Sequence record: NC_002730.1
Source of the DNA: Enterobacteria phage HK620
Reading direction: 5' to 3' (one strand)
Length of the DNA stretch: 38,297 nt
The notes under the pieces are model-generated. The model ran no database searches. It saw only the letters and a list, made by a program, of their open reading frames with translations, and was not told the origin of the DNA. This document shows positions 1 through 17,322 of this stretch, piece after piece. A program made the position numbers and the translations under genes. Within the stretch, counting starts at the first letter, position 1. Every line of letters starts with the position of its first letter.

Positions 1-49
1 TGCACTGGATTGCAAGGTTTTGTTTCTATCAGATAGTGGTTAAGGTGGA

Positions 50-1252: not shown

Positions 1253-1368
1253 GTCATGGAGTGCGGCTGTCAACGATCTGACGCGAACCATTACGAACTG
1301 CGAATCTACGGAAGGCTTGATATTCAGGGGATTTTACGGACTGGTACGGATTGGAGCGAACTGATAAA

Positions 1369-1383
1369 TGGTGTCCCCTGCAG
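1369..1383 (-). other. putative attP core: 15 nt matching the 3' end of tRNA-Arg (argW-type), CTGCAGGGGACACCA on the minus strand
   Basis: Lies between int and the excisionase gene, flanked by arm-type repeats; match to the tRNA 3' end is from memory. Confidence 0.45.
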
Positions 1384-1442
1384 ACATCTACTTGAAGCAG
1401 CAGGGGATTGATTGGAATGGTGTTTTTTAGATGTGAGAAATA

Positions 1443-1462
1443 TTTTACCCGCTATTTTACCC
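1443..1462. repeat. two TTTTACCC repeats (1443-1450, 1455-1462) at the excisionase gene 3' end
   Basis: Same 8-mer as the repeats at the int start, opposite side of the putative core. Confidence 0.4.
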
Positions 1463-1657
1463 ATTGGCGCGGCTTAAGAGCTTATTTTTGAATTCACAAT
1501 GGTCACGATATAACCATCTTGCTCGACCGTGGATAACTTTGGCTTTTGGCAGGTCGCCGGACTTAATCCGGTCATAGATGAAGGTTTTACCGAAGCCAGT
1601 ATCGGCCATGATGAATTTCAAATCAACCAGTGAATCAGGCTGTAGTTCGTGTTGCAT
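1457..1657 (-). CDS. xis: excisionase / recombination directionality factor, TorI/AlpA-like winged-helix protein
   Basis: 66-aa ORF (MQHELQPDSLVDLKFIMADTGFGKTFIYDRIKSGDLPKAKVIHGRARWLY...) with the AlpA/TorI pattern; adjacent to int and att. Confidence 0.8.
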   Translation of the reverse strand: MQHELQPDSLVDLKFIMADTGFGKTFIYDRIKSGDLPKAKVIHGRARWLYRDHCEFKNKLLSRANG

Positions 1658-1676
1658 GAGTGCTATCTCCGAATAG

Positions 1677-1692
1677 GGAATCGAACCTGCAA
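1677..1692 (-). other. tRNA T-arm-like fragment (minus strand TTGCAGGTTCGATTCC), matches the argW-type T-stem/loop then diverges
   Basis: GGTTCGATTCC T-loop signature read from sequence; not a complete tRNA (no acceptor stem or CCA follows). Confidence 0.4.
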
Positions 1693-1701
1693 ATCAGGCA
1701 A

Positions 1702-1726
1702 TAAAAAACCGCCATCAGGCGGCTTG
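1702..1726 (-). terminator. rho-independent terminator at the distal end of the leftward early operon
   Basis: Minus strand GC-rich hairpin (GCCGCC-TGAT-GGCGGT) followed by a T-run. Confidence 0.5.
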
Positions 1727-1788
1727 GTGTTCTTTCAGTTCTTCAATTCGAATATTGGTTACATTGTTTTCATATATGAATAAATAAA

Positions 1789-2001
1789 TTAGCTTTTTTC
1801 GTTGCCTTCGCTTTCTTTATTAATTTTAACAAACTCGTTTTTACCACGCTCTCCAAATGCGTCTTTAGAGTCGTTGTATCCGCAATCGCAGCACACATAA
1901 TCACCAGACCATCCACGCATTGTTTTTTCTTTTGCAATATTTCCAGAACCGCATTTTGGACAAGACATATCACTACCTCCAAAGCATGAGTGAGATGACA
2001 A
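1789..2001 (-). CDS. small zinc-ribbon protein (CPKCGS...CCDCGY), unknown function
   Basis: 70-aa ORF with two CxxC pairs; preferred over the overlapping 115-aa ORF in another frame. Confidence 0.5.
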   Translation of the reverse strand: MSSHSCFGGSDMSCPKCGSGNIAKEKTMRGWSGDYVCCDCGYNDSKDAFGERGKNEFVKINKESEGNEKS

Positions 2002-2064
2002 CGTAACATTGATTGGAGATTAACAATAGATTGCTGATGTAAAAGATATGTATAAGCTTCGCTT

Positions 2065-2598
2065 TCAAAGTGGAGGCTCTGGTAGCGGCATCCAGTGTGA
2101 CGGTTTCCACGACGCACCAGGAATTATCCACCCATCATTAGCGTCAGGATGACCCGGGATGTAAGTCGCCCATTTCATTCGCCAGTCACCTTTCCTGTCA
2201 AACTCCACGGCAACAAGAACGGCTGTTTTGGTATCCGGCATTCGATCACTACAGCTTATCCAACCATCCGGAGTTACCGGAGAGTTGCCATTTACATCGA
2301 AGTTTGGCTCTGCGTCCTGAACCAGGAGGATGTAACCATTCTTGGCAGTATCAAGTTCTAACGCCTCGGTGACGGTACCGAAATAGCGATTACCTAAATC
2401 CGCATCACAAGTGCTTACATCAATGGAAACCTCCATGCCTTCGATTAATTCTGGCAAGTTGTAAGTTTGGCTTACAGGTTCTGCTCCCAGTGATGCCAGT
2501 GCAATCCGTGCCACTTCCATTTGTTCGCCACGGGTAAGCCCGTTATCAAGCGGATTTTTAATGAATAATTCGATACGTTCTTTGGTAATAGTGGTCAT
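2065..2598 (-). CDS. EaA-like early accessory protein with C-terminal DUF551-type domain
   Basis: 177-aa ORF; Trp-rich C-terminal segment (DGWISCSDRMPD...GDWRMKW...HWMPLPEPP) typical of the DUF551 family. Confidence 0.65.
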   Translation of the reverse strand: MTTITKERIELFIKNPLDNGLTRGEQMEVARIALASLGAEPVSQTYNLPELIEGMEVSIDVSTCDADLGNRYFGTVTEALELDTAKNGYILLVQDAEPNFDVNGNSPVTPDGWISCSDRMPDTKTAVLVAVEFDRKGDWRMKWATYIPGHPDANDGWIIPGASWKPSHWMPLPEPPL

Positions 2599-2600
2599 AG

Positions 2601-2792
2601 CTATTTCACCTTAATCTCAACATTTCGCAGCTTTAGCTCTACTGGCAGGTCTGACTTTCCTGTTAATGCTAATGCGAGATTTTCTGGGGTAATGAGAGCA
2701 GTTATTGCTTTCCCCATTGCCAGACGAATAATTATTCGTATTTCGCGATCGTCACATGCTCCTGGTCGAACGATTGATATTTGTCCGTCCAT
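2601..2792 (-). CDS. hypothetical small protein
   Basis: 63-aa ORF tightly packed between neighbouring minus-strand genes. Confidence 0.45.
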   Translation of the reverse strand: MDGQISIVRPGACDDREIRIIIRLAMGKAITALITPENLALALTGKSDLPVELKLRNVEIKVK

Positions 2793-2793
2793 C

Positions 2794-3510
2794 TCACTCT
2801 CCTTTGATGCGAATGCCAGCGGCGCGGATTGCAGCGATGACTTCAGAAACTTTGTATGCCATTACCGTTTGGTAATCATCGTGAAAATCTGTTCGATGAA
2901 GCATGCTGCTACGTTCTGGGAGCAGTATTTCCCGATCCTCCAGTTCTGCAATGCGCTTCTCTGCGGCTTCCAGCTTCTCGCGCATATCGTCAACGTACTC
3001 GACCAGAGAACCGCCAGCAGGAATTTCGCACTCCTCGACCAGTTGGAAGTAGATATCAGCTGCGGCCCGTGTGTTGCTATGCCTAGCGTCGCCCATCTCA
3101 CCTTCACGAAGAGCATCGCGTTCGGCGGTAAGATTGGCTATTTTGCTGTCTTTGCCTTCCAGCTCAACGCGCAGCCTCCCTACCGTTAGCGCAATTTCCT
3201 CGTTCTCCTGGTCGCGGCGTTTGATGTATTGCTGTTTTCTTTCCAGCTCATCCAGCAGCGCCAAGACGGTAGCAGGATTGGCTGCGGCGATGAATTCAGC
3301 ATTGGCCTGCTGTTCCATTTGGAAATCTTCATCGAAACCGCTTTCTGGGTGCGCTCCTTCAATTCTGCAAATGGGAAGATATCCAACAACTTCACGATGA
3401 ATTAGCGCATCATCAGCATCAAATCTCTCCTCTCCATATTCGAGCGACCACACACCACTCGTTGCTTTCTCTGCCTTTTCACGCAGTGCCTGATAGTCAA
3501 TCTTGCTCAC
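2794..3510 (-). CDS. Ead/Ea22-like family protein
   Basis: 238-aa ORF; N-terminus [22 protein letters not shown] and coiled-coil middle typical of Ea22-like proteins. Confidence 0.7.
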   Translation of the reverse strand: MSKIDYQALREKAEKATSGVWSLEYGEERFDADDALIHREVVGYLPICRIEGAHPESGFDEDFQMEQQANAEFIAAANPATVLALLDELERKQQYIKRRDQENEEIALTVGRLRVELEGKDSKIANLTAERDALREGEMGDARHSNTRAAADIYFQLVEECEIPAGGSLVEYVDDMREKLEAAEKRIAELEDREILLPERSSMLHRTDFHDDYQTVMAYKVSEVIAAIRAAGIRIKGE

Positions 3511-4007
3511 TGGCTGCCTCCTTTGCGAAGCTGGTCGGCGAACAAACGTACACTAGACGCTTCACTGCGTAGAAACTTAACGGCATAATCAAAACCACCT
3601 CGTTCTGCGTCGTCTGCTACGTTGTCGAGGTTATCTGCGTACATCTCTACCCCCTGCGCCCGTACTTCAGCCAGGAAAGCGTCGGTAGTTGGGGTTTCAG
3701 TAACATCATCTTCCCATTCGCTAAACTCCTCACGACAAAAGTCATTAAATTCCTTCTCAGATTGCTTAAGCGAGGTATTTTCAGCAGCCATCTTCGCGCA
3801 TTTAGCCTCAAGGTTATCAATCGTGATTCCAGCAGAACGACACTCCCGCAACGCCGTTTCCAGTTTTGATTCAAGTTCACCGAACTTACGCACCAGATAT
3901 TCAGCGTTTGTTTCGTTAACCTTTAAATCTCGTGGGAAGCATTTACCTTTCAGAAAACCATCCATCTCAATTAGTGACATTTGTTTCATTTCTTCCCACT
4001 CCGCCAC
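3507..4007 (-). CDS. hypothetical acidic coiled-coil protein
   Basis: 166-aa ORF, overlapping start/stop with neighbours, same operon. Confidence 0.6.
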
Positions 4008-4167
4008 ATAGCATTCAGATATTTGTTTTGATTCACTGATGGAAAAGAATTTCTCTTAAGCAATTCTTCTCTCGATGGCATTGGCTTTACGCGTTGGCGA
4101 ATAATCATTTCTGCCGGAAGAATGCCGGGATTGTATGCAAGTCCTCTCATGGTAAATTCCTCAGTCA
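3986..4167 (-). CDS. hypothetical small protein, translationally coupled to the upstream gene
   Basis: Internal ATG ([15 protein letters not shown]...) overlaps the upstream stop in an ATGA arrangement. Confidence 0.45.
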
Positions 4168-4457
4168 TTACTGATAGCGCCATAGCGTGAGTGGTAATTA
4201 CGCAGGCGCGGGTCGATATATTCAGGGAAGTGGGTATATGTGGCTTTGCGGAATGGTCGGATTGATGTCTGGTAAATTCGCTCGCGTTCTTCTTTCTCTG
4301 CAAGCCATATACAATGGCGAAATTCCTTTTCCTCTTTCGTTTCCTGCGGTAGCGACATTATCCGATCGTAGTTTTTTCTGAATTTATCCAGCACCTCCGA
4401 TACGGAATTGCCGGAACAGCGGAGTGGGTCATCCGCACCATACAGAGGCGCTGGCAT
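4161..4457 (-). CDS. hypothetical protein
   Basis: 98-aa ORF in the early-left operon. Confidence 0.5.
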
Positions 4458-4480
4458 AATGGGAGCCTTATTTTCAGTAA

Positions 4481-5068
4481 TCAGAAAGGAGGGTAATCGT
4501 TCTGGCTGTAACCATAATCATCTGCATGATTCTGGCTTACGTTTTTAGAGCGATTGTCTTTATCTTTGAGGCTGGCAACCATGTTGGCGATAGTTTCTGG
4601 TTGCTTGCCTACCGCCTTTTCTTTAAGGGTTTGACCTGTTTGTGCAATAAACGGGATGCGTATTTCCATCTGGTAGCTGTCTGCGCCAGTCTTTTTGTTT
4701 GTGGTTAATACTTTCTGGAGCACTAACCCGATTTTCTTTCCATGAAATTCAGGAGCAACAAATTTACTGGCGGAAACCATATGTTGCGTTAATTGTCCAA
4801 TCCCGGCACACCCCATCATGGCGTGGACGACATTTGCGCCAAATTTATTTTCCGTTCCGTCATTTTTCTGAACACAAACGCTAAGATATTGGATTTTACG
4901 TCCGTCGTCGGATTCGCCAGAAAACTCAATAAATTTGGCTCCTTTTTCTGATTGCTTTAGTTCTGCTTCAGTAATGGTAATGATATGAGCGCCAGTTTCG
5001 TTAATAAAACCACCTTGCCCTGCGGTCAGTGCTGCTTCTTCGTTATAAGTAAAAATCACGTTGCTCAT
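4481..5068 (-). CDS. DUF669-family protein, likely ssDNA-binding partner of Sak4
   Basis: 195-aa ORF immediately downstream of, and overlapping, the Sak4-like gene. Confidence 0.6.
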   Translation of the reverse strand: MSNVIFTYNEEAALTAGQGGFINETGAHIITITEAELKQSEKGAKFIEFSGESDDGRKIQYLSVCVQKNDGTENKFGANVVHAMMGCAGIGQLTQHMVSASKFVAPEFHGKKIGLVLQKVLTTNKKTGADSYQMEIRIPFIAQTGQTLKEKAVGKQPETIANMVASLKDKDNRSKNVSQNHADDYGYSQNDYPPF

Positions 5069-5745
5069 GCGGCGTTTTCCTTAATTTGATGAACATTATT
5101 GATGCCGTAGTAATCACAAACAGTGGCATCGACGAAAGAGAGATCGTTATCAATCTCATTGGAGTCAAACATTCCCATTGGGGATTTAACAGTGTCTGCA
5201 CCGTTGTTTTTTGTGGTGAAAAAGAACTGGTCATCACGGGTAAGGGTGCGAAGAACTATAGTAAACATGCCTTCGACAGTGATTTTCTCGTCCAGCATTT
5301 TGCCGATAGTTTTCATTTTCACGCGCCCCATAGGGGTTTCTTCGGTGTGTGCAAGAAAATAGACTCTCAGGTCATCAGGTGCATCCTGTGCAGCCTTAAT
5401 CACCTCCCATGCGTGGCGGCCTATCTCAGTAAATTTATCAAACGATTTTTCTTCTGAGCGGCGCATAAACTCATTGCTCATCACATACTGGAAGTCATCA
5501 ACAATAACGATTCTTTTCCCGTATTCGTGAGCACGCTTAATTACGGCAACTATTACGTCCCATTTGTCAGTGGTAACTACGGTTCCTTTTTTTGCTCTGG
5601 CATCCCATGCCAGCCATTCTTTTGATTTAAAAGGTAGCGGCTTGCCTATTGGTTTTATAAGTATTGCTTCCTCTGGATTGATATTTCTCATGCTGGTTGA
5701 TTTTCCGGTGCCAGATTCACCGAGTATTAATGTCGCAGTTCCCAT
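5065..5745 (-). CDS. Sak4-like RecA-family recombination ATPase (AAA_24)
   Basis: 226-aa ORF with Walker A ILGESGTGKST near the N-terminus; sits where lambdoid phages carry recombination genes. Confidence 0.8.
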   Translation of the reverse strand: MGTATLILGESGTGKSTSMRNINPEEAILIKPIGKPLPFKSKEWLAWDARAKKGTVVTTDKWDVIVAVIKRAHEYGKRIVIVDDFQYVMSNEFMRRSEEKSFDKFTEIGRHAWEVIKAAQDAPDDLRVYFLAHTEETPMGRVKMKTIGKMLDEKITVEGMFTIVLRTLTRDDQFFFTTKNNGADTVKSPMGMFDSNEIDNDLSFVDATVCDYYGINNVHQIKENAA

Positions 5746-5753
5746 AATTTGCC

Positions 5754-5954
5754 TCAGAATGGTAATTCGGATGGGACGGAAAGAAATTCGCGCTCATTCA
5801 TGCGCTCTCTTTGAGCCTGCCATAAACAAAGTTGTTTCTTTGATTTATCTCCCGCTTTACGCCAGTAACGAGCCTCAGCAATGTGATATTCTCTTTTTAA
5901 TCGACTTAATTCTGGAGTTTTCGCCAGTTCTACCGGAATCATTTTGACCTCCAT
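5754..5954 (-). CDS. hypothetical small protein
   Basis: 66-aa ORF between kil-like and Sak4-like genes. Confidence 0.45.
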   Translation of the reverse strand: MEVKMIPVELAKTPELSRLKREYHIAEARYWRKAGDKSKKQLCLWQAQRERMNEREFLSVPSELPF

Positions 5955-6052
5955 TTTCTGTAGGCTTCGATGGCCTCACGAAACATCTTTTCATCGCCAA
6001 TAAAAGTGGCGATAGTGAATTTAGTCTGGATAGCCATAAGTGTTTTATCCAT
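5939..6052 (-). CDS. kil: Kil-like host cell-division inhibitor peptide
   Basis: Internal ATG gives MDKTLMAIQTKFTIATFIGDEKMFREAIEAYRKW..., resembling lambda Kil from memory; directly downstream of cIII. Confidence 0.55.
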   Translation of the reverse strand: MDKTLMAIQTKFTIATFIGDEKMFREAIEAYRKWRSK

Positions 6053-6185
6053 TTTTGGGAACTCCTGGCTGATTAAGTACGTCGATGAGTCGTTTCCATC
6101 CGTCACGTAATTTACGGGTGATTCGTTCAAGTAAAGATTCGGAAGGGCAGCCAGCAACAGGCCACCCTGCAATGGCATATTGCAT
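6045..6185 (-). CDS. cIII: CIII, FtsH protease inhibitor
   Basis: MQYAIAGWPVAGCPSESLLERITRKLRDGWKRLIDVLNQPGVPKNG is near-identical to lambda CIII as I recall it. Confidence 0.75.
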   Translation of the reverse strand: MQYAIAGWPVAGCPSESLLERITRKLRDGWKRLIDVLNQPGVPKNG

Positions 6186-6334
6186 GGTGTGCTCCTTATT
6201 TATACATAACGGAAAACGCCTCTCGTGAAGCGTTATTGGTATGCATATAAAAAGGCCCTCACATTGGAGGGCAAAGAAGATTTCCAATAATCAGAACAAG
6301 TCGGCTCCTGTTTAGTTACGAGCGACATTGCTCC

Positions 6335-6362
6335 GTGTATTCACTCATTGGAATGAATACAC
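6335..6362. promoter_or_regulatory. perfect 9-bp inverted repeat GTGTATTCA-N10-TGAATACAC
   Basis: Read directly from sequence in the intergenic region between cIII and the counter-oriented gene. Confidence 0.4.
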
Positions 6363-6482
6363 AGTGCAGTGTTTATTCGTATGCCTGTCTTTTAACCACA
6401 TCAGGCTCGGTGGTTCTCGTGTACCCCTACAGCGAGAAAAATAGTAAAATCCTCTTACCCCTACAGTAAGAGAGTAATTTAT

Positions 6483-6977
6483 ATGGATGTGTTATCTGGT
6501 ATAACTGCCGCGAAACAGGCTTATGATCTGCTGAAGACAATAAAAGAAACCAGAGACGATGCTGTTATCGCTAAAGCTATTGGTGATCTACACCAAAGAA
6601 TAACTGACTTACAGATGCTTAATGCGGAGCTCTCTGGCCTTTATCAGGCCGAGAAGGAGATCGCAATGAAGCTTCGAGATGAAAATAGAAAAATCAAGAT
6701 GTTTGTTGTGCAAGCTGAGAATTATGAACTTCATACAACTGAAGGTGGTTCTGTCGTGTATCGACCTAAGAGTCATTCCGATCATTCTATTCAGCAGCAT
6801 AACCTTTGTGCACATTGCTTCGGCGAACATAAAATATCGATACTTCAACCAAGCACGGTTACTATAAAATCTAATGGATTCTTTGTGCATTCATGTCCTC
6901 GCTGTAAGAATGAATACCGGATGTATAGAGCGCCAGACCCTAAGCCTGTATATGTACCGCCGCTGACAAATTATTAA
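6483..6977 (+). CDS. hypothetical protein: N-terminal coiled coil, C-terminal zinc ribbon (CAHC...CPRC); oriented against the leftward operon
   Basis: 164-aa ORF with ATG start; lower GC than neighbours; preceded by palindromes and direct repeats. Confidence 0.6.
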   Translation: MDVLSGITAAKQAYDLLKTIKETRDDAVIAKAIGDLHQRITDLQMLNAELSGLYQAEKEIAMKLRDENRKIKMFVVQAENYELHTTEGGSVVYRPKSHSDHSIQQHNLCAHCFGEHKISILQPSTVTIKSNGFFVHSCPRCKNEYRMYRAPDPKPVYVPPLTNY

Positions 6978-7007
6978 TTTTATTCCTGAAATGGCCTCTT
7001 CACCCCC

Positions 7008-7370
7008 TTACTTTGTCAGGGGGATATCTCCTTCAGTTTTGACCATTCGCCTTAATACTTTCCTTAAGTCGATGTAAAGTTGAAGGTCTCCATTTGCTGC
7101 GGCATCAGCCATTTTTTGCCTGACAAGCAGTAATGTTTCATACGGCTCAATAAGAATATCGTCATGAGTAATTAGGTGAAGCGTTGCCGCATCAACTATT
7201 CCTAGAGCTGCGCCAAGTATCAAAAATTCCCTGCTATTTTTGTCGCATGAGGAGATAAGCGTATTTAGCGCATACCTAATATTCTTTATAGCTGTTGTTA
7301 ATGCTGCAATTTCTTCTATGGCGTCTTCTCCAATGAGCTTTTTAAGCTCATATTTTTCTTCCTGACCCAT
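7008..7370 (-). CDS. hypothetical protein, translationally coupled to N
   Basis: ATG at 7370 with GAGG ribosome-binding site overlapping the N stop (gaggTAAttATG); 120 aa. Confidence 0.55.
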   Translation of the reverse strand: MGQEEKYELKKLIGEDAIEEIAALTTAIKNIRYALNTLISSCDKNSREFLILGAALGIVDAATLHLITHDDILIEPYETLLLVRQKMADAAANGDLQLYIDLRKVLRRMVKTEGDIPLTK

Positions 7371-7372
7371 AA

Positions 7373-7645
7373 TTACCTCGCCGTCAGTTGTTTTGATTTC
7401 CGGTAGCCTGCCGCGTAAATGGCTACGTTTGGCAGGCAAATACTTCCACTGCATTCTTCTGCCTTCTTGCAGCGAATGCTTCCGAGTGATGCTGCTTTAT
7501 CTGCTCTGACGCAACCAGAGAGCTTTAGCGCAATTTTTCGCGCCAGTCGCTGCTCTTGCATTGCCTGTTCACGTTGAGCCTGTCTGCGTGCTCTGCGGCG
7601 ATTTCTGGCGTTATCGTCAGCCAGATATGTAATGACTACTGTCAT
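7373..7645 (-). CDS. N: N-like transcription antiterminator with N-terminal arginine-rich motif
   Basis: 90-aa ORF with ARM (DNARNRRRARRQAQREQ); first gene after pL/nutL; GGAGG ribosome-binding site. Confidence 0.75.
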   Translation of the reverse strand: MTVVITYLADDNARNRRRARRQAQREQAMQEQRLARKIALKLSGCVRADKAASLGSIRCKKAEECSGSICLPNVAIYAAGYRKSKQLTAR

Positions 7646-7752
7646 GTTGACCTCCGATGATTGACTTTGGCGGTGACGCGCCGGGTGCTTATCTTCAGGT
7701 TGCCGTCGTGCAGCTGCACTTCACGTCACCCCAAAGCCAACTACTCTTTGGT

Positions 7753-7794
7753 TCCCGCATTTCGGCGGGACAATCCCATCAATGTTAAAGAGCC
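7753..7794 (-). promoter_or_regulatory. nutL: boxA-like GCTCTTTAAC plus boxB hairpin
   Basis: boxB is identical to the hairpin downstream of cro (UCCCGCCGAAAUGCGGGA). Confidence 0.55.
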
Positions 7795-7839
7795 TGCCAA
7801 TCTGTTCCGTTTGGCTTCCAGCGTCCTGCTGATGGCTAA

Positions 7840-7880
7840 AGAATACTGTAGGTATTTTATTGTGTAAATACCCAAGGTAT
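7840..7880 (-). promoter_or_regulatory. pL promoter (TTTACA-N17-TATTCT on minus strand) with two palindromic operators ATACTGTAGGTAT (7843-7855) and ATACCCAAGGTAT (7868-7880)
   Basis: 13-bp palindromes of type ATAC-N5-GTAT, 25 bp apart, overlapping -10 and -35; same family as the oR sites. Confidence 0.55.
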
Positions 7881-8012
7881 TTATTTTTGATGAAATAATG
7901 ATAAACAAATGAATACAAAGGATATTTATTTTTTCGCTGTCTGCTTGTTCAGTGATTTTTATGCGGGATATGTGAAGTGGATCCCGATAGCTATTGCTGC
8001 CGGGATTATGGG

Positions 8013-8381
8013 TTAGTCAGCGAAGGTTAAGACGAGAATTACCTTAATGATGTCTGCTACAACAGACACGGCCATAGATAAACCAAAGACGATCCAAGCC
8101 ACAGTGATGTCTTCACTACCATCGTATAGAGTTCCGTAATCACTGGTGTAAGGCGTAAATGTCGCGCCTTGATACAATAGGTATAAGCTTGATCCATAGA
8201 GGATAAATGCAGATATCCCTTGTATTGCTATGATCACAAGAATCATGAAACGAGCTGATCTATGCGCCCAAGCCTGGCTTATTTTTTCTGATAGAGATTT
8301 CGCAATAAAAGCATGCGCTAAGACGTAAATTGTCGAGATTGCCAACATCCCAAAAAAGCTTGCTATAGCGGTTCCAACCAT
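8013..8381 (-). CDS. small integral membrane protein (about three predicted TM helices) encoded immediately downstream of cI
   Basis: 122 aa from ATG at 8381 with AAGGGG ribosome-binding site; begins 18 nt after the cI stop on the same strand; hydrophobic segments throughout. Confidence 0.6.
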   Translation of the reverse strand: MVGTAIASFFGMLAISTIYVLAHAFIAKSLSEKISQAWAHRSARFMILVIIAIQGISAFILYGSSLYLLYQGATFTPYTSDYGTLYDGSEDITVAWIVFGLSMAVSVVADIIKVILVLTFAD

Positions 8382-8398
8382 AATCGCCCCTTGCGTGA

Positions 8399-9115
8399 TC
8401 AAACCAGCCTTAGTTTTGTCTCAATTGCAACGCCTATAATCTTGCAGTTTCCATTGATTGGCACGAGAGGCCATGCAGGATTAAGTCCCTTGAGGTATTT
8501 ATTTCCGCCGTCGATTATCAGCTTCTTGAATGTTGCTTCGTTAGAGTCAGAAAGTTTTGCTATGACCAAGCTGCCGTTGATCGCCTCCCTTCCGGTATCG
8601 AAAAGAACGAATGTTCCCTCTGGAATGCTTAACCCAACCGGTGCCGTCATTGAATCACCTTCCACTTTAAGCCAGAACGCATTACCTTGAATATGCGCGT
8701 CAGACTCAAGCCAAACATCTATGTCTTTAATGGTGTATGGTTCGCATGCTTCACACCACGAGCCAGCCTGGATACTGCTTAACACCGGATACCTCTTTCC
8801 TGCTCTGTATTCCCCTGCATACCTTACGTTGGCATCGCTCTTAAGGCTTTCTGCCTGTTCTGCAACCTTGGCAGCAATTGACTGGCTAAAATCAGCAATA
8901 GAGACTTGCAACAATCGTGTAAAACCAGATGCAACCTCAACGTTTAGCGCGTTTCTGCCATTAAGATAATGCCCTACCGCTCCTTGGGTGATACCCAGTT
9001 CATCAGCGATTGAGTATTGGGTTATTCCCAATTCTTTCTTTTTTGACTCATACAAAGCCTTAAGCCGCTTAGCGTCTTCGAGCTGTTCTGTCGTCAGTGA
9101 TTTTTTATTTTCCAT
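8399..9115 (-). CDS. cI: CI repressor (lambda-CI-like N-terminal HTH plus C-terminal S24 autopeptidase domain)
   Basis: 238 aa; MENKKSLTTEQLEDAKRLKALYESKKKELG... parallels lambda CI; EGDSMT serine motif and FKKLI lysine motif present. Confidence 0.92.
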   Translation of the reverse strand: MENKKSLTTEQLEDAKRLKALYESKKKELGITQYSIADELGITQGAVGHYLNGRNALNVEVASGFTRLLQVSIADFSQSIAAKVAEQAESLKSDANVRYAGEYRAGKRYPVLSSIQAGSWCEACEPYTIKDIDVWLESDAHIQGNAFWLKVEGDSMTAPVGLSIPEGTFVLFDTGREAINGSLVIAKLSDSNEATFKKLIIDGGNKYLKGLNPAWPLVPINGNCKIIGVAIETKLRLV

Positions 9116-9151
9116 AGCTTAATTCTAATAGCTAAGGTACTTAAACTAAAA

Positions 9152-9192
9152 ATACCCTGAGTATTGATTGCTTTGAATACCTGTAGTATTCT
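9152..9192 (+). promoter_or_regulatory. oR/pR: palindromic operators ATACCCTGAGTAT (9152-9164) and ATACCTGTAGTAT (9177-9189); candidate pR TTGATT-N17-TATTCT; divergent pRM implied
   Basis: Same palindrome family and 25-bp spacing as at pL; sits between divergent cI and cro. Confidence 0.55.
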
Positions 9193-9221
9193 TTGTTCAT
9201 GGTTAATAACGGAGAGTGCAT

Positions 9222-9416
9222 ATGATTCGAATGACACTTGCCGATTACGCCAAAATCCATGGACAGGCTAAAGCAGCCAGTGACTTTGGTGTAATCCAGT
9301 GCGCTATCAGCAAGGCCATTCTGGCAGGCCGTAACATCATGGTTACGGTAAAGCCTGATGGCAGTGTGATTGGAGAGGAAGTTCGTCCTTTCCCAAGCAA
9401 CAAGAAAAACAAATAG
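9222..9416 (+). CDS. cro: Cro repressor
   Basis: [24 protein letters not shown]...FPSNKK parallels lambda Cro; GGAG ribosome-binding site upstream of ATG 9222. Confidence 0.85.
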
Positions 9417-9422
9417 TAACAC

Positions 9423-9467
9423 CGCTCTTTAACAGTCATGGTCCTCATTCCCGCCGAAATGCGGGAA
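9423..9467 (+). promoter_or_regulatory. nutR: boxA CGCTCTTTAAC plus boxB hairpin TCCCGCCGAAATGCGGGA
   Basis: Canonical boxA; boxB identical to the nutL copy. Confidence 0.6.
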
Positions 9468-9524
9468 TACAACGCGCATAAGTTGATGCGCATAACTTCT
9501 TATTTGTTAAGGAAATACTTACAT

Positions 9525-9803
9525 ATGCAACTTACAAGTACTCGCAAGAAAGCGAATGCAATTACAAGCAACATCCTAAATCGAATTGCTGTACGTGGTC
9601 AGCGAAAGGTTGCTGATGCATTAGGGATCAATGAATCGCAAATTTCGCGATGGAAAGACAGCTTTATCCCAAAGATGGCCATGCTTCTGGCTGTGCTGGA
9701 GTGGGGTGTTGAAGACGAGGAGTTGGCGGAACTGGCTAAGAAAGTAGCCAGAATGCTGACAAAAGAAAAAGCCCCGAAGAACGGCGAATTCTTCGAGGCC
9801 TAA
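9525..9803 (+). CDS. cII: CII transcriptional activator
   Basis: 92 aa; ...[28 protein letters not shown]... parallels lambda CII; ribosome-binding site AAGGAAA. Confidence 0.85.
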
Positions 9804-9845
9804 TGTAGAAAGACTGGATCAATCCACGGGAGTAATTATGACAAA
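9761..9845 (-). ncRNA. OOP-like antisense RNA (approximate), terminator inside the cII 3' end
   Basis: Minus strand 10-bp stem hairpin followed by CTTTTTCTTTT at about 9761-9800; 5' end not defined. Confidence 0.4.
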
Positions 9846-9984
9846 ACAACTCAGTCCTTACCAGGACAAAATTCACAAACACATACTACGTGATCGCTTC
9901 CTGTCCAGCTTCAAGCAGCCTGGTCGATTCCGGGCTGAGTTGGAAAAAGTGAAGCTGATGCAGAAGGAGAAAGGTCATGAGTAA
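9838..9984 (+). CDS. hypothetical small protein (48 aa)
   Basis: ATG start; overlaps the start of the replication initiator gene. Confidence 0.4.
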
Positions 9985-10876
9985 CATATCTAATCTAGCC
10001 GAAGCCAGAGAGGCCAGAAGGCTACAACAACCGCATCAAAGCAGCGGTAAGGGGTATGCCTTGCTGCACCGTAAAATTATGGATGTGCCGTTTTACAAGG
10101 ACGCAGAAGCAGCGCATCTGTGGGTTCACTTAATTCTCAAAGCAAAGCATACGCCTGAGTATGTAATGACTGACGCAGGAGAAATTCTGGTAGGCAGAGG
10201 GAAGCTACTTGGCGGTAGAAACTCTCTGGCGTTTGAAACAGGACTCAAACCAGATCGCGTTCAGTACCTGCTTAGAAAGTTCAAAAAACTCGGCATGATT
10301 GACTGGGTTTCACACGGTAAATTCTCAGTTTTCTCGGTAGAGAAATATGACGATTATCAGTCAAATTTTGTACCAGCAGATTACCAGCAAATTACCACCT
10401 CAAAGCCAGCAATACCAATGCCTGTAAGCAATACTGTACCAGCAGATTACCAGCAAATTACCACAGATAAAGAATATAATAATATTATCTCTAATACTGA
10501 CGTATTAGAGAGTGCCACAGTAGACAAAAAGTCTGACAAGAAAAAACCTTCCGTTAGCTGTCAGGATGTTGTCGATGCTTACCACGAAATCCTTCCTGAA
10601 GCGCCAAAAATCCGCGCACTGAATGACAAGCGTAAAAACCAGATCCGAACGTTCTGGCGCAAAGCCGGAGTGATAACCCGCCAGCTTGACGGGCATGGGT
10701 TCACGATGCAGGACTGGAGAAATTATTTGATCTACGTAGGCGAAAATTGCCGATGGATGTTCGAAGAACGCCCAAACCATCAACGCGGAACCGTCTGGCA
10801 CAAAAAGGGATTTGATTTCCTGCTTAACGACAATACCTACCTGAAAGTTCGTGAGGGTGAACACGATGACCGATAA
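9977..10876 (+). CDS. replication initiation protein (lambda O / P22 gp18 functional analogue) with internal origin iterons
   Basis: 299-aa ORF directly upstream of the DnaB-like helicase; contains direct DNA repeats followed by an AT-rich stretch. Confidence 0.7.
10370..10464 (+). repeat. origin iterons: 29-bp direct repeat GTACCAGCAGATTACCAGCAAATTACCAC x2 (10370-10398, 10436-10464), each with two ATTACCA sub-repeats
   Basis: Read directly; encodes duplicated [10 protein letters not shown] peptide; AT-rich segment follows at about 10465-10510. Confidence 0.55.
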
Positions 10877-12302
10877 TTTTTATGCGCCGCCCCATAGCAT
10901 CGAGGCAGAGCAGGCGGTGATTGGTGGATTGCTTCTGGATGATGACAGCAGTGAGCGCGTCCAGAAAGTTCTGGCGATGCTGAAGCCCGATTCATTTTAC
11001 AGCCGACCACACAAAATCCTTTTCGAAGAAATAACCAGAATGCACCGGGAGCAAAAGCCAGTAGATGGCCTGACGCTTTTCGATGAACTGGAGCGTAAAT
11101 CGTTAACGGCGTCTGTTGGCGGTTTTGCTTATATCGCTGAGATCGCAAAGAACACGCCGAGCGCCGCAAACATCGTTGCCTATGCAATGCAGGTTCGTGA
11201 AACCGCAATGGAACGCTACGCCATCAACCGCATGACTGAAGCGACGGAATTGCTCTATTCCCGCAACGGAATGACTGCAACGCAGAAGTACGAAGCTATT
11301 CAGGCGATTTTCACGCAACTGACAGACCATGCAAAAACCGGATCGCGTCGCGGCCTTCGCTCATTTGGTGAGGTCATGGAAGACTGGGTTAGCGACCTTG
11401 AGAAGCGATTTGACCCGTCAGGCGAACAGCGAGGAATGAGCACAGGGATCCCATCGCTGGACAGGATGCTGTCACCGAAAGGTCTGGTGAAAGGTTCTCT
11501 GTTTGTCATTGGCGCTCGCCCTAAGATGGGGAAAACGACGCTATACAGCCAGATGGCAATCAACTGCGCAGTGCATGAGAAAAAGCCCGCTCTGATGTTC
11601 AGCCTTGAAATGCCAGGTGACCAGATACTGGAAAAACTGGTAGGGCAGAAGTCTGGTGTTAACCCGAATATTTTTTACCTTCCGGCGACAAATGACGCTG
11701 ATGACGGCTATCAGGGTGATTACGATGGTGACTTCAACAGGGCGATCGAAACAGCCAATCGCTTGAGTGAAATCGACATGCTTTACATCGACGACACGCC
11801 GGGATTATCTCTGGCTCAAATCGTCAGCGAAAGCCGTCGAATCAAGCGAGAAAAAGGATGTGTTGGCATGATTCTGGTCGATTACCTGACACTAATGACC
11901 GCTGAAAAGGCCGATCGCAACGACCTTGCTTACGGCATGATCACCAAAGGACTGAAGAACCTTGCCAAAGAGCTTGATTGCGTTGTTGTGCTTCTGACGC
12001 AGCTTAACCGCGCATTGGAAAGCAGAACCAATAAACGCCCATTACCAAGTGACTCACGAGATACAGGGCAGATTGAACAGGATTGCGATTATTGGGTGGG
12101 GATCCATCGTGAAGGTGCTTTTGATGACAGTGTTCCACCTGGTGAAACCGAACTAATCCTTCGTCTCAATCGTCATGGCAATACCGGCACGGTGTATTGC
12201 ATTCAGGCAAATGGCGCTATTTATGACACAGACCAACAGTCCGCTGAAATGCGCCGCCGTGAACGCGAGGAACCGCAATCCAAGAAGAAAGGAGGATTCT
12301 GA
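10866..12302 (+). CDS. DnaB-like replicative DNA helicase
   Basis: N-terminal DnaB domain (IEAEQAVIGGLLLD) and Walker A GARPKMGKTT. Confidence 0.9.
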   Translation: MTDNFYAPPHSIEAEQAVIGGLLLDDDSSERVQKVLAMLKPDSFYSRPHKILFEEITRMHREQKPVDGLTLFDELERKSLTASVGGFAYIAEIAKNTPSAANIVAYAMQVRETAMERYAINRMTEATELLYSRNGMTATQKYEAIQAIFTQLTDHAKTGSRRGLRSFGEVMEDWVSDLEKRFDPSGEQRGMSTGIPSLDRMLSPKGLVKGSLFVIGARPKMGKTTLYSQMAINCAVHEKKPALMFSLEMPGDQILEKLVGQKSGVNPNIFYLPATNDADDGYQGDYDGDFNRAIETANRLSEIDMLYIDDTPGLSLAQIVSESRRIKREKGCVGMILVDYLTLMTAEKADRNDLAYGMITKGLKNLAKELDCVVVLLTQLNRALESRTNKRPLPSDSRDTGQIEQDCDYWVGIHREGAFDDSVPPGETELILRLNRHGNTGTVYCIQANGAIYDTDQQSAEMRRREREEPQSKKKGGF

Positions 12303-12377
12303 TGACCATCTACATCACTGAGCTTGTAACAGGCCTGCTGGTAATCGCAGGCCTTTTTATTTGGGGGAGAGTAAATC

Positions 12378-12584
12378 GTGGCTGAGTTTATGCTCGTCGC
12401 ACTCAAATGCGTTGGCGTTGGATGGATTCTTCTGACGTTTTTTATTGTTCTGCATAGCTACATTCGTCTTGTGAATGACGGTAAAGACCCATGGTATACG
12501 TTGTTTGGCGCTGCATTTGTCTGGGTGATTATCGGTGTTATGCCTGTTGTCGTAGCAAAAGTGGCGTGGCGTTTTGTGAGTTGA
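12378..12584 (+). CDS. hypothetical small membrane protein
   Basis: 68-aa hydrophobic ORF; a 27-aa hydrophobic ORF (12302-12385) overlapping the helicase stop precedes it. Confidence 0.4.
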   Translation: MAEFMLVALKCVGVGWILLTFFIVLHSYIRLVNDGKDPWYTLFGAAFVWVIIGVMPVVVAKVAWRFVS

Positions 12585-12591
12585 GGTAACG

Positions 12592-13002
12592 ATGAAGCAA
12601 ACAATCTTCCTCCGAAGTAAGCAACAACAGCAAGCCGCAATCAACGCCATCCTCGAAACTCCTCTCGATAAAGACAAGCCAGTCACCATCCGCATTACTG
12701 ACTACAAGCGCAACCTTGACCAGAACGCAAAATTTCACGCGATGCTGGCGGATATCGCTTGTCAGGTTCAATGGTGCGGCAAATGGTTAAAACCAGAGCA
12801 ATGGAAGGTTTTGTTGATCAGCGGTCATGCAGTGGCAACAAAGCAGGAAGCTGATGTTTTGCCCGGGCTTGAAGGCGAATACGTCAACATTCGCGAAAGC
12901 AGCGCGCAGATGAGTGTGAAGCGTATGGCAAGTCTGATCGAGTACACAACAGCCTGGGCTATTGGTCAGGGTGTCAGATTTACCGACAGGAGGTATGAAT
13001 GA
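12592..13002 (+). CDS. ninB: NinB recombination protein
   Basis: 136-aa ORF resembling lambda NinB from memory; first gene of the nin block. Confidence 0.75.
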
Positions 13003-13181
13003 GGCGACAGCGACGAAGTATCACCGACATCATCTGCGAAAACTGCAAATACCTTCCAACGAAACGCTCCAGAAATAAACGCAAGCCAATCCCAAAAGAA
13101 TCTGACGTAAAAACCTTCAACTACACGGCTCACCTGTGGGATATCCGGTGGCTTAGAGAACGTGCGAGGAAAACAAGGTGA
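12999..13181 (+). CDS. ninE: NinE-like protein
   Basis: 60 aa, [34 protein letters not shown]..., resembles lambda NinE from memory. Confidence 0.65.
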
Positions 13182-13348
13182 TTGACCCAAATCGAAGTTA
13201 CGAACAAGAAAGCGTCGAGCGGGCTTTAACGTGCGCTAACTGCGGTCAGAAGCTGCATGTGCTGGAAATTCACGTGTGTGAGCACTGCTGCGCAGAACTG
13301 ATGAGCGATCCGAATAGCTCAATGTACGAGGAAGAAGACGATGAATGA
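13178..13348 (+). CDS. ninF: NinF-like small zinc-binding protein
   Basis: GTG start overlapping the ninE stop; 56 aa with CANCGQKLH...HVCEHCC; not in the ORF track (under 60 aa). Confidence 0.55.
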
Positions 13349-14063
13349 GTTAATAAATGGCAATGCCATCAAAATGACAAGCATTGAAATCGCTGAGTTG
13401 GTGGGTAAGCGTCATGACAATGTGAAACGTACCATCGAAACGCTGGCTAAAAATGGTGTTATCCGGCTTCCTCAAATTGAGGTTTCCGAAAGAATCAATA
13501 ACTTAGGGTTCAATGTTCAGTACGAGCATTACGTCTTCGAGGGCGAACAAGGTAAGCGAGACAGTATTGTCGTTGTTGCCCAGTTGTCGCCAGAGTTCAC
13601 CGCTCGCCTTGTTGACCGCTGGCGAGAGCTTGAAGAAACTGCGGTTAATATCCCCAAAACGCTACCAGAAGCGTTGCGCCTTGCTGCTGATCTTGCTGAG
13701 CAGAAAATGCAACTGGAAAACCAGCTCGCAATTGCCGCACCTAAAGTTGAGTTTGCCGATCGCGTTGGCGAGGCCAGCGGAATTTTGATTGGAAACTTTG
13801 CAAAGGTTGTTGGAATTGGTCCAAACAAACTGTTTGCGTGGATGCGCGATCACAAAATCCTTATTGCTTCAGGTTCCCGGCGCAATGTGCCAATGCAGGA
13901 ATATATGGAGCGCGGCTATTTCACAGTGAAAGAAACAGCGGTCAACACAAATCACGGAATACAGATATCGTTCACCACAAAAATCACCGGGCGTGGTCAA
14001 CAGTGGCTGACCAGAAAGCTGCTCGATAACGGAATGCTGAAAGTAACCGGAGAGGCTGCTTAA
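13341..14063 (+). CDS. antirepressor-like protein: N-terminal Rha-type domain plus C-terminal KilAC-type domain
   Basis: 240 aa; N-terminus MTSIEIAELVGKRHDNVKRTIETLAKNG fits the Rha pattern; C-terminal half fits the KilAC pattern. Confidence 0.7.
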   Translation: MNELINGNAIKMTSIEIAELVGKRHDNVKRTIETLAKNGVIRLPQIEVSERINNLGFNVQYEHYVFEGEQGKRDSIVVVAQLSPEFTARLVDRWRELEETAVNIPKTLPEALRLAADLAEQKMQLENQLAIAAPKVEFADRVGEASGILIGNFAKVVGIGPNKLFAWMRDHKILIASGSRRNVPMQEYMERGYFTVKETAVNTNHGIQISFTTKITGRGQQWLTRKLLDNGMLKVTGEAA

Positions 14064-14353
14064 TGGTTAACCTACGCAAAGAAGCGCGCGGCAGAGAATG
14101 CCAGGTACGTATTTACGGCGTATGCAATGGTAATCCTGAAACTACAGTTCTGGCACATTACCGGATGGCTGGAATTTGCGGAACTGGAATGAAGCCTGAC
14201 GACCTGATCGGTGCATGGGCTTGTAGTGACTGCCACGCGGAAATCGACCGACGCACCCATAACCTCGACAACAAAGACGCCAGACTTTACCACCTGGAAG
14301 GCGTGATCAGGACGCAGGCGATACTGCTGAAGGAGGGGAAGATTAAGCCATGA
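14063..14353 (+). CDS. DUF1364-family protein (YbcO-like, Cys/His-rich)
   Basis: 96 aa; immediately upstream of rusA, as in cryptic lambdoid prophages. Confidence 0.65.
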   Translation: MVNLRKEARGRECQVRIYGVCNGNPETTVLAHYRMAGICGTGMKPDDLIGAWACSDCHAEIDRRTHNLDNKDARLYHLEGVIRTQAILLKEGKIKP

Positions 14354-14712
14354 ACGAATATCAGTTTGTGCTTCCATACCCGCCGTCGGTGAACACCTAC
14401 TGGCGAAGACGGGGAAGCCAATACTACATCAGCGATAAAGGCCAGAAATACCGAAAAGACGTTCAGCAAATCATCCGCCAACTCAAGTTAGACATTTTCA
14501 CCAAATCACGACTCCGCATCAAAGTCATCGCAGACGTTCCAGACTCCCGCCGCCGCGACCTCGATAACATCCTGAAAGGTTTACTCGATTCCCTTATCCA
14601 CGCCGGATTTGCGGAAGACGACGAGCAATTCGATGACATTCGCGTAATTCGTGGTGTGAAAGTACCAGGCGGACGGCTTGGAATAAAAATCACCGAACTG
14701 GAGAACGCATGA
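14350..14712 (+). CDS. rusA: RusA Holliday-junction resolvase
   Basis: 120 aa; ...VPDSRRRDLDNILKGLLDSL... matches the RusA catalytic region. Confidence 0.9.
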   Translation: MNEYQFVLPYPPSVNTYWRRRGSQYYISDKGQKYRKDVQQIIRQLKLDIFTKSRLRIKVIADVPDSRRRDLDNILKGLLDSLIHAGFAEDDEQFDDIRVIRGVKVPGGRLGIKITELENA

Positions 14713-14897
14713 ACGCCACAATTCAAACGATACCAGAGCTTCTTATCCAGACACGAGGCAATCAGACCGAAGTGGCGAGGATGCTTTCCTGCGCAAGAGG
14801 AACGGTGCTCAAGTACAACCGAGATAGCAAAGGCGAGCGTCACGTAATAGTTAACGGCGTCCTGATGGTCAAACAGGGCAAGAGGGGAAGACGATGA
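14709..14897 (+). CDS. ninH: NinH-like protein
   Basis: 62 aa; ...GNQTEVARMLSCARGTVLKY... resembles lambda NinH. Confidence 0.75.
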   Translation: MNATIQTIPELLIQTRGNQTEVARMLSCARGTVLKYNRDSKGERHVIVNGVLMVKQGKRGRR

Positions 14898-15517
14898 GAC
14901 TCGAAAGCGTAGCTAAATTTCATTCGCCAAAAAGCCCGATGATGAGCGACTCACCACGGGCCACGGCTTCTGACTCTCTTTCCGGTACTGATGTGATGGC
15001 TGCTATGGGGATGGCGCAATCACAAGCCGGATTTGGAATGGCTGCATTCTGTGGTAAGCACGAACTCAGCCAGAACGACAAACAAAAGGCTATCAACTAT
15101 CTGATGCAATTTGCACACAAGGTATCGGGGAAATACCGTGGTGTGGCAAAGCTCGAAGGAAATACTAAGGCAAAGGTGCTGCAAGTGCTCGCAACATTCG
15201 CTTATGCGGATTATTGCCGTAGTGCCGCGACGCCGGGCGCAAGATGCAGAGATTGTCACGGTACTGGCCGGGCCGTTGATATTGCCAAAACAGAATGGTG
15301 GGGGAGAGTTGTCGAGAAAGAGTGCGGAAGATGCAAAGGCGTCGGCTATTCAAGGATGCCAGCAAGCGCAGCATATCGCGCTGTAACGATGCTAATCCCA
15401 AACCTTACTCAACCCACCTGGTCACGCACTGTTAAGCCGCTGTATGACGCTCTGGTGGTGCAATGCCACAAAGAAGAGTCAATCGCAGACAACATTTTGA
15501 GTGCGGTCACACGTTAG
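14894..15517 (+). CDS. Q: late-gene antiterminator Q (lambda-Q type)
   Basis: 207 aa, essentially the lambda Q sequence as I recall it, including the zinc-finger region CRDCHGTGR...CGRCKGVG. Confidence 0.92.
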   Translation: MRLESVAKFHSPKSPMMSDSPRATASDSLSGTDVMAAMGMAQSQAGFGMAAFCGKHELSQNDKQKAINYLMQFAHKVSGKYRGVAKLEGNTKAKVLQVLATFAYADYCRSAATPGARCRDCHGTGRAVDIAKTEWWGRVVEKECGRCKGVGYSRMPASAAYRAVTMLIPNLTQPTWSRTVKPLYDALVVQCHKEESIADNILSAVTR

Positions 15518-15559
15518 CGGCATGATTGCCACGGATGGCAACATCTTTACGGCATGATA

Positions 15560-15588
15560 TTGACTTTTTGAATAAAGTTGGGTAAATT
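15560..15588 (+). promoter_or_regulatory. late promoter pR-prime (TTGACT-N17-TAAATT) with overlapping Q-utilisation region
   Basis: Hexamers read directly; lambda-like context downstream of Q. Confidence 0.6.
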
Positions 15589-15622
15589 TGACCCAACGAT
15601 GGATAAATGCACTCGTTAAATA

Positions 15623-15653
15623 AAGCCCTGAGTTAATAGCTCGGGGCTTTTTC
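15623..15653 (+). terminator. rho-independent terminator (tR-prime-like) shortly downstream of the late promoter
   Basis: AAGCCCTGAG-loop-CTCGGGGCTT followed by TTTT. Confidence 0.6.
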
Positions 15654-16538
15654 ATTTCTGCAATCCGGTCAGGACTTTCGAGTTAATGCGTGCTGCACGA
15701 CACGTTGACACTCATACGCGAGAGCCCTGAGCCAGATTGAAGGCTATCAGGTAAGAGCATATCGACGCACTGATAGGGCTGGATTGGAAGATCATTCAGA
15801 GACCCGGCAGACAGATGTGTTCTTTCCGATGGTTTTCGTAAGCGACTTTGCGGTTTTTTAGAAACTGATCACAAAGATAAATGCAAACGAAGAAATGTAT
15901 CTGGCCGTAGCTTAACCGCTAAACACCAGTGAGGTATTCCAGTTCCTCATCAACGAATCTGGCGCACTGGCCCGGTGTGATTAATAATGGGCACACAACA
16001 GGTAAGAGCATTAAAGAACTGGCAAAGAGCTTAACGGTCTGCGAAAGCATTTCTTAGTGGCACAACTGGCCGGTACAACTGAGTGCTCTTTCCGGTGTGG
16101 TGAATGCGCAGGCTGATGCGCGCAGGAGAGCTTCGGAAGAACAAGGTGCCTGTATACAAGCCGGAGATCAGCGCCGGCCACCACAGCCAAATCCACCCAG
16201 AGCAAAACCGTTGTTCATCCTTACCATTCCCTCAGTATTTTGGGCTACAACCCTCAGCCCATTTTTTAAAGCGTACTTCCACCAAGAACCAGACCTAACC
16301 AACTCATTGCTGACACTCTGTGGATACGGTTGTCTAGTGCGCTTTAAAAAAGAAAACCCAGCATCAATGGCTGGGCTTCGTGATATGAGCGGCATGTATT
16401 GTTGGCGCAATCCACGCCTGATTTGCTCATGAATGCGGTCACGAACAAACCCGTTACAAATCAACCGTAACCCGGATTTGTTCAAGCGACCATATCCATA
16501 ATTCCTAATTTGAACAGATCCCCTTCTGGGGGTAAGAC

Positions 16539-16862
16539 ATGAAGATGCCAGAAAAAAATGACCTGTTAGCCGCCATTCTCGCGGCAAAGGAACAAGGCAT
16601 CGGGGCAATCCTTGCGTTTGCAATGGCGTACCTTCGCGGCAGATATAATGGCGGTGCGTTTACAAAAACAGTAATCGACGCAACGATGTGCGCCATTATC
16701 GCCTGGTTCATTCGTGACCTTCTCGACTTCGCCGGACTAAGTAGCAATCTCGCTTATATAACGAGCGTGTTTATCGGCTACATCGGTACTGACTCGATTG
16801 GTTCGCTTATCAAACGCTTCGCTGCTAAAAAAGCCGGAGTAGAAGATGGTGGAAATCAATAA
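16539..16862 (+). CDS. S: class I holin (lambda S type) with dual start motif
   Basis: 107 aa, [22 protein letters not shown]..., near-identical to lambda S as recalled. Confidence 0.92.
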
Positions 16863-17322
16863 TCAACGCAAGGCGTTCCTCGATATGCTGGCGTGGTCAG
16901 AGGGAACAGATAATGGACGTCAGAAAACCAGAAATCATGGTTATGACGTCATTGTTGGCGGAGAGCTATTCACTGATTACTCCGATCACCCTCGCAAACT
17001 TGTCACGCTAAACCCCAAACTCAAATCAACAGCCGCCGGACGTTACCAGCTTCTTTCCCGTTGGTGGGATGCATACCGTAAGCAGCTTGGACTGAAAGAC
17101 TTCTCTCCGAAAAGCCAGGACGCTGTGGCGCTGCAGCAGATTAAGGAGCGTGGCGCTTTGCCGATGATTGATCGCGGTGATATCCGTCAGGCAATCGACC
17201 GTTGCAGCAATATCTGGGCTTCATTGCCGGGAGCTGGTTATGGTCAGTTCGAGCATAAGGCTGACAGCCTGATTGCAAAATTCAAAGAAGCGGGCGGAAC
17301 GGTCAGAGAGATTGAGGTATGA
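16846..17322 (+). CDS. R: endolysin (lambda R-type lytic transglycosylase)
   Basis: 158 aa, [26 protein letters not shown]... Confidence 0.92.

Follow-up and report, generated by a model that had tools for sequence, protein, structure and literature searches.

The nin region of Enterobacteria phage HK620 (NC_002730.1) harbours a gene whose product carries the label 'antirepressor' in databases, which raises the question of which gene this is, and whether its product acts on a repressor, on the host, or on the DNA of the phage itself. The whole stretch of 38,297 nt that was analysed is called the window here. According to the ORF list, the gene occupies 13341..14063 on the plus strand, with an ATG start and 723 nt including the stop codon, and encodes a protein of 240 aa. 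Pfam detected an ANT/KilAC domain (PF03374) towards the C-terminus, at residues 126-228 (13716..14024, plus strand), with E=9.8e-33 and 113.2 bits, above the gathering cut-off of 25.3. The N-terminal part, residues 12-99 (13374..13637, plus strand), matched the full profile length of Phage_pRha (PF09669), a Rha-type winged helix-turn-helix domain, with E=6.3e-9 and 36.7 bits at a cut-off of 29.9; the protein therewith possesses a helix-turn-helix DNA-binding module. A previous reading of this DNA, made from the sequence only, had described a 240-aa protein joining a Rha to a KilAC domain. The ORF is present and the Pfam profiles support both domains, and the score for the NCBIfam Rha subfamily TIGR02681 stayed below its cut-off (18 bits vs 45.95), with residues 12-36 alone aligned. 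The whole protein was assigned to PHROG 63, 'anti-repressor Ant' (PHROGs, E=9e-99). P22-Ant-type domains (ORF6N/AntA and P22_AR_C) were absent among its Pfam hits. Neither the PDB, searched by sequence at E<=1, nor the PADLOC defence models yielded a match. Among 64 sampled diverse full-length relatives, all possess the ANT domain and sixty-one possess pRha.

The ORF is identified, with high confidence, as roi of the lambdoid phages of the HK022/HK97/HK620/HK633 type. The Roi protein of phage HK633 is 100% identical, and the two genes differ at two nucleotides. Roi of HK022 is 88% identical over 240 aa (E=7e-158), and Roi of HK97 is 87% identical (E=4e-157). Residues 64-240 are 97-99% identical to HK022 Roi, and the KilAC region is 97-99% identical to both the HK022 and the HK97 protein. 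The counterpart gene is annotated in HK633 as 'DNA-binding protein; Roi', and records of the reference phages name it 'roi, DNA binding protein'. Annotated Roi orthologues of the HK022 protein are found in HK97, HK620, HK633, mEpX1, and the Stx phages.

Over 12592-15517, the sequence shares 99.4% identity with phage HK633, and the gene order ninE-ninF-roi-gp66(ybcO)-rusA-ninH-Q is common to HK022, HK97, and HK633. We compared 83 roi loci, 80 of them on viral contigs and three in the reference phages. NinF precedes Roi with an identical overlap in 83 out of 83 loci, and YbcO lies directly downstream in seventy-five of them. Homologues of 53-58% identity are also located in the nin regions of other lambdoid prophages. 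In the nin region of Stx phages, this place holds an Ant gene and, behind it, roi (PMC3430580). Two contigs carrying roi allele C (L086 and L087, positions 1746-2426) show the Ant-then-Roi order described for the Stx phages, with a 226-aa gene of the P22-Ant type (ORF6N and P22_AR_C domains) replacing ninF directly upstream of roi. The position of roi in HK620 is normal, since it is the same in the 83 loci, in the homologues of 53-58% identity, and in the Ant-roi loci of Stx phages.

The gene is widespread, being present in about 1,110 out of 5,426 complete E. coli genomes, approximately one fifth. The search at protein level revealed Roi in 1,630 phage records and Roi protein clusters with thousands of members, and 7,052 Roi relatives were found among the representatives of clusters at 50% identity. 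Four database entries for Roi are longer than the HK620 protein (P0001, P0002, P0006, and P0007). Two of them are N-terminally extended to 304 aa, and two have 294 aa with NinB and ANT Pfam hits, which points to fused genes or wrongly called starts in certain prophages. The sequence-only reading was correct in placing the gene between ninF and DUF1364/rusA, and outside the immunity region, which lies about 4 kb upstream of roi. Its view of this position as unusual does not hold, since this is the canonical place of roi, nor does its treatment of the gene as unrecognised, since roi was already named in HK022 and HK97 and is annotated in HK633. The finding is therefore a re-identification of a gene named in 1996, already known from the reference phages, common, and in its canonical location.

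The genes surrounding roi were assigned with Pfam. Upstream are ninB (12592-13002), ninE (12999-13181), and ninF (13178..13348, plus strand), the last of which overlaps roi by 8 nt. Downstream are ybcO/DUF1364 (14063..14353, plus strand, E=1.3e-43), rusA (14350-14712), ninH (14709-14897), and the antiterminator gene Q (14894-15517). Base 14063 is shared by the roi stop codon, as its last base, and by the ybcO ATG, as its A. The terminator scan found a tR2-like intrinsic terminator with an 8-bp stem, 6 GC pairs, and a T run at 12331..12354 on the plus strand, where the replication gene is followed by the nin region. Between this terminator and ninB lies an ORF of 68 aa (12378-12584, plus strand), hydrophobic and without Pfam match, which corresponds to the hypothetical protein HK633_054. 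The promoter scan of 9000-17000 revealed a single sigma-70-like site, the pR'-like late promoter downstream of Q (15560..15588, plus strand), and the annotation of HK633 has PR' and qut at the corresponding place. No sigma-70-like promoter was detected between the tR2-like terminator (12354) and pR' (15560). LexA boxes were absent within 3 kb of roi, and their counts were at chance level. The Rfam search over 12000-16500 found no RNA family. This arrangement is consistent with roi being a delayed-early gene of the pR transcript, which would be reached once N allows read-through of the tR2-like terminator; its translation would be coupled to that of ninF, upstream, and to that of ybcO, downstream.

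The function of Roi has been addressed for the protein of HK022. In 1996, Clerget and Boccard (J Bacteriol 178:4077) reportedly described HK022 Roi as a helix-turn-helix DNA-binding protein that blocks lytic growth in IHF-deficient hosts. The protein is said to bind a site inside its own gene, adjoining an IHF site, and IHF is said to stabilise this binding. Point mutants in roi reportedly grow on IHF-deficient hosts, and the C-terminal half of the protein reportedly resembles P1 Ant1 and KilA. With moderate confidence, we propose by analogy that HK620 Roi works as published for HK022 Roi. The overall explanation that we consider probable is that roi, as an accessory nin-region gene, encodes a two-domain regulator, which acts together with IHF on a module inside the gene, and not a demonstrated antirepressor.

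An AlphaFold2 model of Roi was obtained from an alignment of 64 diverse relatives, with a mean pLDDT of 79.9 and a pTM of 0.40. Because the pTM is only 0.40, the relative orientation of the domains in the model is unreliable. An earlier run on a shallow alignment of sequences with 84-99% identity reached a pLDDT of 47 and was unusable. The N-terminal unit is predicted as a winged helix, including strand 11-13, helices 14-21 and 25-37, a beta hairpin 45-52/58-67, and helices 68-82 and 84-101. A long predicted helix at residues 108-144 (13662..13772, plus strand) connects the domains and is a possible dimerisation element. The C-terminal unit consists of helices 150-157, 161-170, and 186-190, a hairpin 194-215, and helix 217-229.

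All divergence of HK620 roi from the HK022 and HK97 genes is confined to approximately nt 61-240 of the gene. This mosaic hypervariable patch (13401..13580, plus strand, residues ~21-80) is 50-65% identical to both at the nucleotide level; the first 60 nt of the gene are identical and the remaining gene is 93-100% identical. The patch encodes helix 25-37 and the hairpin, that is, the putative recognition helix and the wing, through which a winged helix normally contacts DNA. Unlike the HK022 allele, HK620 roi carries an N-terminal patch of the HK620/HK633 type (residues ~21-64), and the differences between the Roi proteins of HK620 and HK022 fall exactly on the helix and wing that putatively contact DNA. 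The patch has at least eight allele types among 181 roi genes. The DNA specificity and the IHF phenotype of the HK620 allele are consequently extrapolated from the HK022 allele, the sole allele with biochemistry.

A predicted IHF site is present inside HK620 roi as a consensus match. The IHF core consensus AATCAATAACTTA (pattern WATCAANNNNTTR) was found at 13493..13505 on the plus strand, corresponding to gene nt 153-165, as an exact match. The pattern has only four matches in the 38-kb window, one of which is inside roi. The core is located at the same gene position in HK022 roi, in alleles A-F, and in L209, a homologue of 59% identity, which amounts to seven allele types. Within the variable patch, AATCAATnnnTTAGG is the sole invariant island. 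Resampling of synonymous codons gave a probability of about 0.05 per allele for the consensus given the amino acids, and the conservation of the core could partly reflect the conserved peptide I-N-x-L-G.

Upstream of the IHF core, at a distance of 10 bp, roi contains the perfect 13-bp palindrome CCTCAAATTGAGG (13470..13482, unstranded, gene nt 130-142), which is present as a single exact copy in the window and is a candidate Roi operator. The sequence of the 13-mer changes between alleles. Alleles A, E, and H have CCTCAAATTGAGG, allele B has CCCCCAATGGTGG, allele C has CCTGCATTGCAGG, and allele F has CCGCCAATGGCTG; L209 has ACGCCAATGGCGT. Allele D, which is that of HK022 and HK97, has CCTGCATTGCAGC, a sequence different from the CCTCAAATTGAGG of HK620. 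The dyad symmetry is kept across seven alleles, with 92.9% complementary cells and compensatory double changes in four out of six pairs. The covariation was 0.524 in this set of seven related alleles, for a palindrome noticed after the fact, vs 0.121+-0.075 in shuffles, none out of 500 of which was as high. Slid controls were 24-40% paired. By synonymous-codon resampling, the probability of a perfect dyad given the amino acids was 0.014 for allele A, and 0.023 for alleles C and D.

The palindrome and the IHF core are jointly present in seven allele types and jointly absent in G, L210, and L211, which also lack the I-N-x-L-G wing motif. Allele H possesses the palindrome without the IHF core. 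An RNA hairpin was rejected as the reading of the palindrome, because RNA cannot fold into a 6-bp stem closed by a loop of 1 nt, and because the innermost A-T pair does not vary; the palindrome is therefore naturally read as a protein-binding site with dyad symmetry. Palindrome and IHF core together fit the published intragenic binding site of Roi and IHF. From the sequence, the palindrome may be the Roi binding site reported for HK022, or that site may be a different one.

Further dyads were found in the gene. Each roi gene contains one to three perfect and four to five near-perfect 13-bp dyads, and our own estimate of the chance expectation for perfect ones is about 0.2 per 723-nt gene. In HK620 roi there are three perfect 13-bp palindromes, namely ATGGCAATGCCAT (13357-13369), CCTCAAATTGAGG at the position given above, and TTTCACAGTGAAA (13919-13931). 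The palindromes at gene nt 17 and 579 were rejected as operators, since they show no compensatory variation among alleles. Allowing up to two mismatches, the candidate operator has three matches in the whole window, two of which lie within roi. The copy with two mismatches, CCTAAAGTTGAGT at 13740-13752, lies 270 bp downstream, in the conserved half of the gene, is not allele-specific, and is probably due to chance.

The candidate palindrome lies in codons of the wing, and three classes were distinguished when it was compared with the recognition helix: K-R-T occurs with CTCAA, K-I/V-S with CTGCA, and K-Q/R-S with C(C/G)CCA. A tentative interpretation, which we regard as possible and rather doubtful, is that Roi and its operator evolve as a self-contained specificity cassette, in which the palindrome changes in step with the helix. 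If this were true, co-infecting lambdoid phages would carry mutually insulated pairs of Roi and operator, similar to immunity but hidden within coding sequence.

From these elements, and by analogy with HK022, a mechanism can be proposed for the HK620 protein. The N-terminal Rha-type winged helix would bind DNA, the long central helix would probably dimerise the protein, and the C-terminal KilAC domain would serve as an effector or as a second interaction module. A Roi dimer and IHF would assemble on the intragenic module, with the palindrome as the putative operator next to the IHF site. Such a complex would hold the level or the availability of Roi in check, and could also brake transcription towards Q. 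In hosts lacking IHF, Roi would be misregulated, and the lytic growth of the phage would be harmed.

Roi appears dispensable. In one viral contig, L145 (IMGVR_UViG_2778261535_000012), nearly all of roi is gone through a natural, clean in-frame deletion, which joins Roi residues 1-22 to YbcO and has a short GGT(T)AA microhomology at the junction; roi can therefore be lost. Additionally, certain O157 Stx2a phages carry an IS629 insertion in roi (PMC4587872).

The strong conservation of the KilAC half, 97-99% across alleles, would also fit a conserved target in the host. In such a case, KilAC would damp the SOS response or RecA as in AriS, or block cell division as described for P1 KilA and CreP, and the Rha domain would merely regulate. 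The architecture of HK620 Roi matches one class of AriS-like proteins, which join an N-terminal AntA/B, Bro-N, or pRha domain to KilAC; the existence of members with a pRha N-terminus, and the inhibition of SOS induction by the KilAC domain of AriS alone, are in agreement with an action on the host (PMC9043618). E. coli cells form filaments under the effect of CreP, a protein made up of one KilAC domain (bioRxiv 2024.01.05.574328). However, the hosts of AriS and CreP are distant, relatives in phages of Gram-positive bacteria are only 30-42% identical over the KilAC half of Roi, and nothing of this kind has been reported for Roi. The known phenotype is the dependence on IHF, which points to an action at the level of DNA. 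We thus regard a host-directed role as improbable, compared with regulation by Roi and IHF at the intragenic module.

The label 'antirepressor' implies that Roi binds and inactivates a repressor of the CI type, either that of its own phage or that of a co-resident heteroimmune prophage, by which it would reinforce lytic commitment or cross-induce neighbouring prophages, a role suggested in the sequence-only reading. The KilAC domain that Roi has in common with P1 Ant1 and KilA, and the placement of Roi in 'anti-repressor' families (PHROG 63 and database names), are in line with this, as is the experimentally supported Ant encoded directly upstream of roi in Stx phages (PMC3430580). Nonetheless, the sole published activity of Roi is DNA binding together with growth inhibition in IHF mutants, and the literature searched contained no report that Roi acts as an antirepressor. 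An own promoter under separate control, which in functional antirepressors permits synthesis while CI is active, was also not found for roi, which has neither promoter nor LexA box and whose start overlaps ninF. Roi would therefore be made only from the pR transcript, after derepression of its own prophage or during infection, which does not fit the role of an antirepressor that would trigger the induction of that prophage. The resident CI, encoded by cI at 8399-9115 on the minus strand with HTH and S24 self-cleaving peptidase domains, needs no antirepressor. Moreover, Roi lacks the P22-Ant-type domains, and relatives of Roi also exist in virulent phages, for example ICP1, where there is no repressor for them to act against. 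The KilAC domain of Listeria AriS also acts otherwise, in SOS inhibition (PMC9043618). An antirepressor function of Roi is accordingly unlikely in our view. The label, also used in the sequence-only reading, goes back to the KilAC domain in P1 Ant and KilA and not to a demonstrated activity of Roi. For a very common prophage protein, this is a database name without experimental basis, which calls for caution by annotators and readers.

The other genes identified in the immunity region of HK620 are cro (9216-9416) and cII (9438-9803). P22 keeps its immI region at the position where HK620 has three ORFs of 181, 121, and 64 aa (33313-34288), just upstream of the tailspike gene. These ORFs have no Pfam match and no domain of the Ant, Arc, or Mnt type; an immI-like antirepressor at this place was rejected on the absence of ANT-type Pfam hits. 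Adjoining the tailspike gene, a 414-aa ORF on the minus strand (36788-38032) matches O-antigen polymerase below the threshold (20.9 bits vs a cut-off of 24.2) and may serve in O-antigen modification or serotype conversion. The window as a whole (1-38297) is a mosaic temperate phage or prophage. In the search of its first 25 kb, the early region (~1-17300) was 98.6% identical to the siphovirus HK633, and from about 17300 P22/Sf6-like podoviruses such as Sf6, Gally, and vB_EcoP-611R6 were matched, with portal, DNA-transfer, and tailspike genes covered by this match.

Regulation by Roi and IHF at the intragenic module, the preferred explanation, can be compared with known systems. P22 Ant, encoded in immI, shares with Roi the database label 'antirepressor' only. 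It differs in its ORF6N/AntA and P22_AR_C-type domains, its own promoter, its dedicated regulators Mnt and Arc, and its location in the late region. The functional antirepressors compared, namely P22 Ant, P1 Ant1/2, GfoA and GfhA of Gifsy, and Ant of Phi24B, are controlled by Mnt/Arc, LexA, or antisense RNA.

P1 Ant1, KilA, Listeria AriS, and Acinetobacter CreP are similar to Roi in their C-terminal KilAC domain and in their modular organisation with a variable N-terminal DNA-binding domain. Unlike Roi, they have AntA/AntB, KilA-N, Bro-N, or no domain at the N-terminus. The activities of KilAC proteins are diverse, including antirepression, killing, filamentation or a block of cell division (KilA, CreP), and inhibition of SOS (AriS), none of which has been demonstrated for Roi.

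The rha gene of phi80 is a gene of the late operon, whereas roi is located in the nin region. Rha of phi80 and P22 belongs to the N-terminal family PF09669, as does Roi, whose match is modest (36.7 bits) and which stays below the TIGR02681 cut-off. By its title, Henthorn & Friedman 1995 characterised the founding rha genes of phi80 and P22 as 'inhibitory for phage growth in E. coli IHF mutants', and, going by the titles of the papers, Rha and Roi are alike in inhibiting phage growth in such hosts. The closest known system is HK022 Roi itself, which occupies the same place in the nin region as HK620 Roi and has the same IHF consensus at gene nt 153-165.
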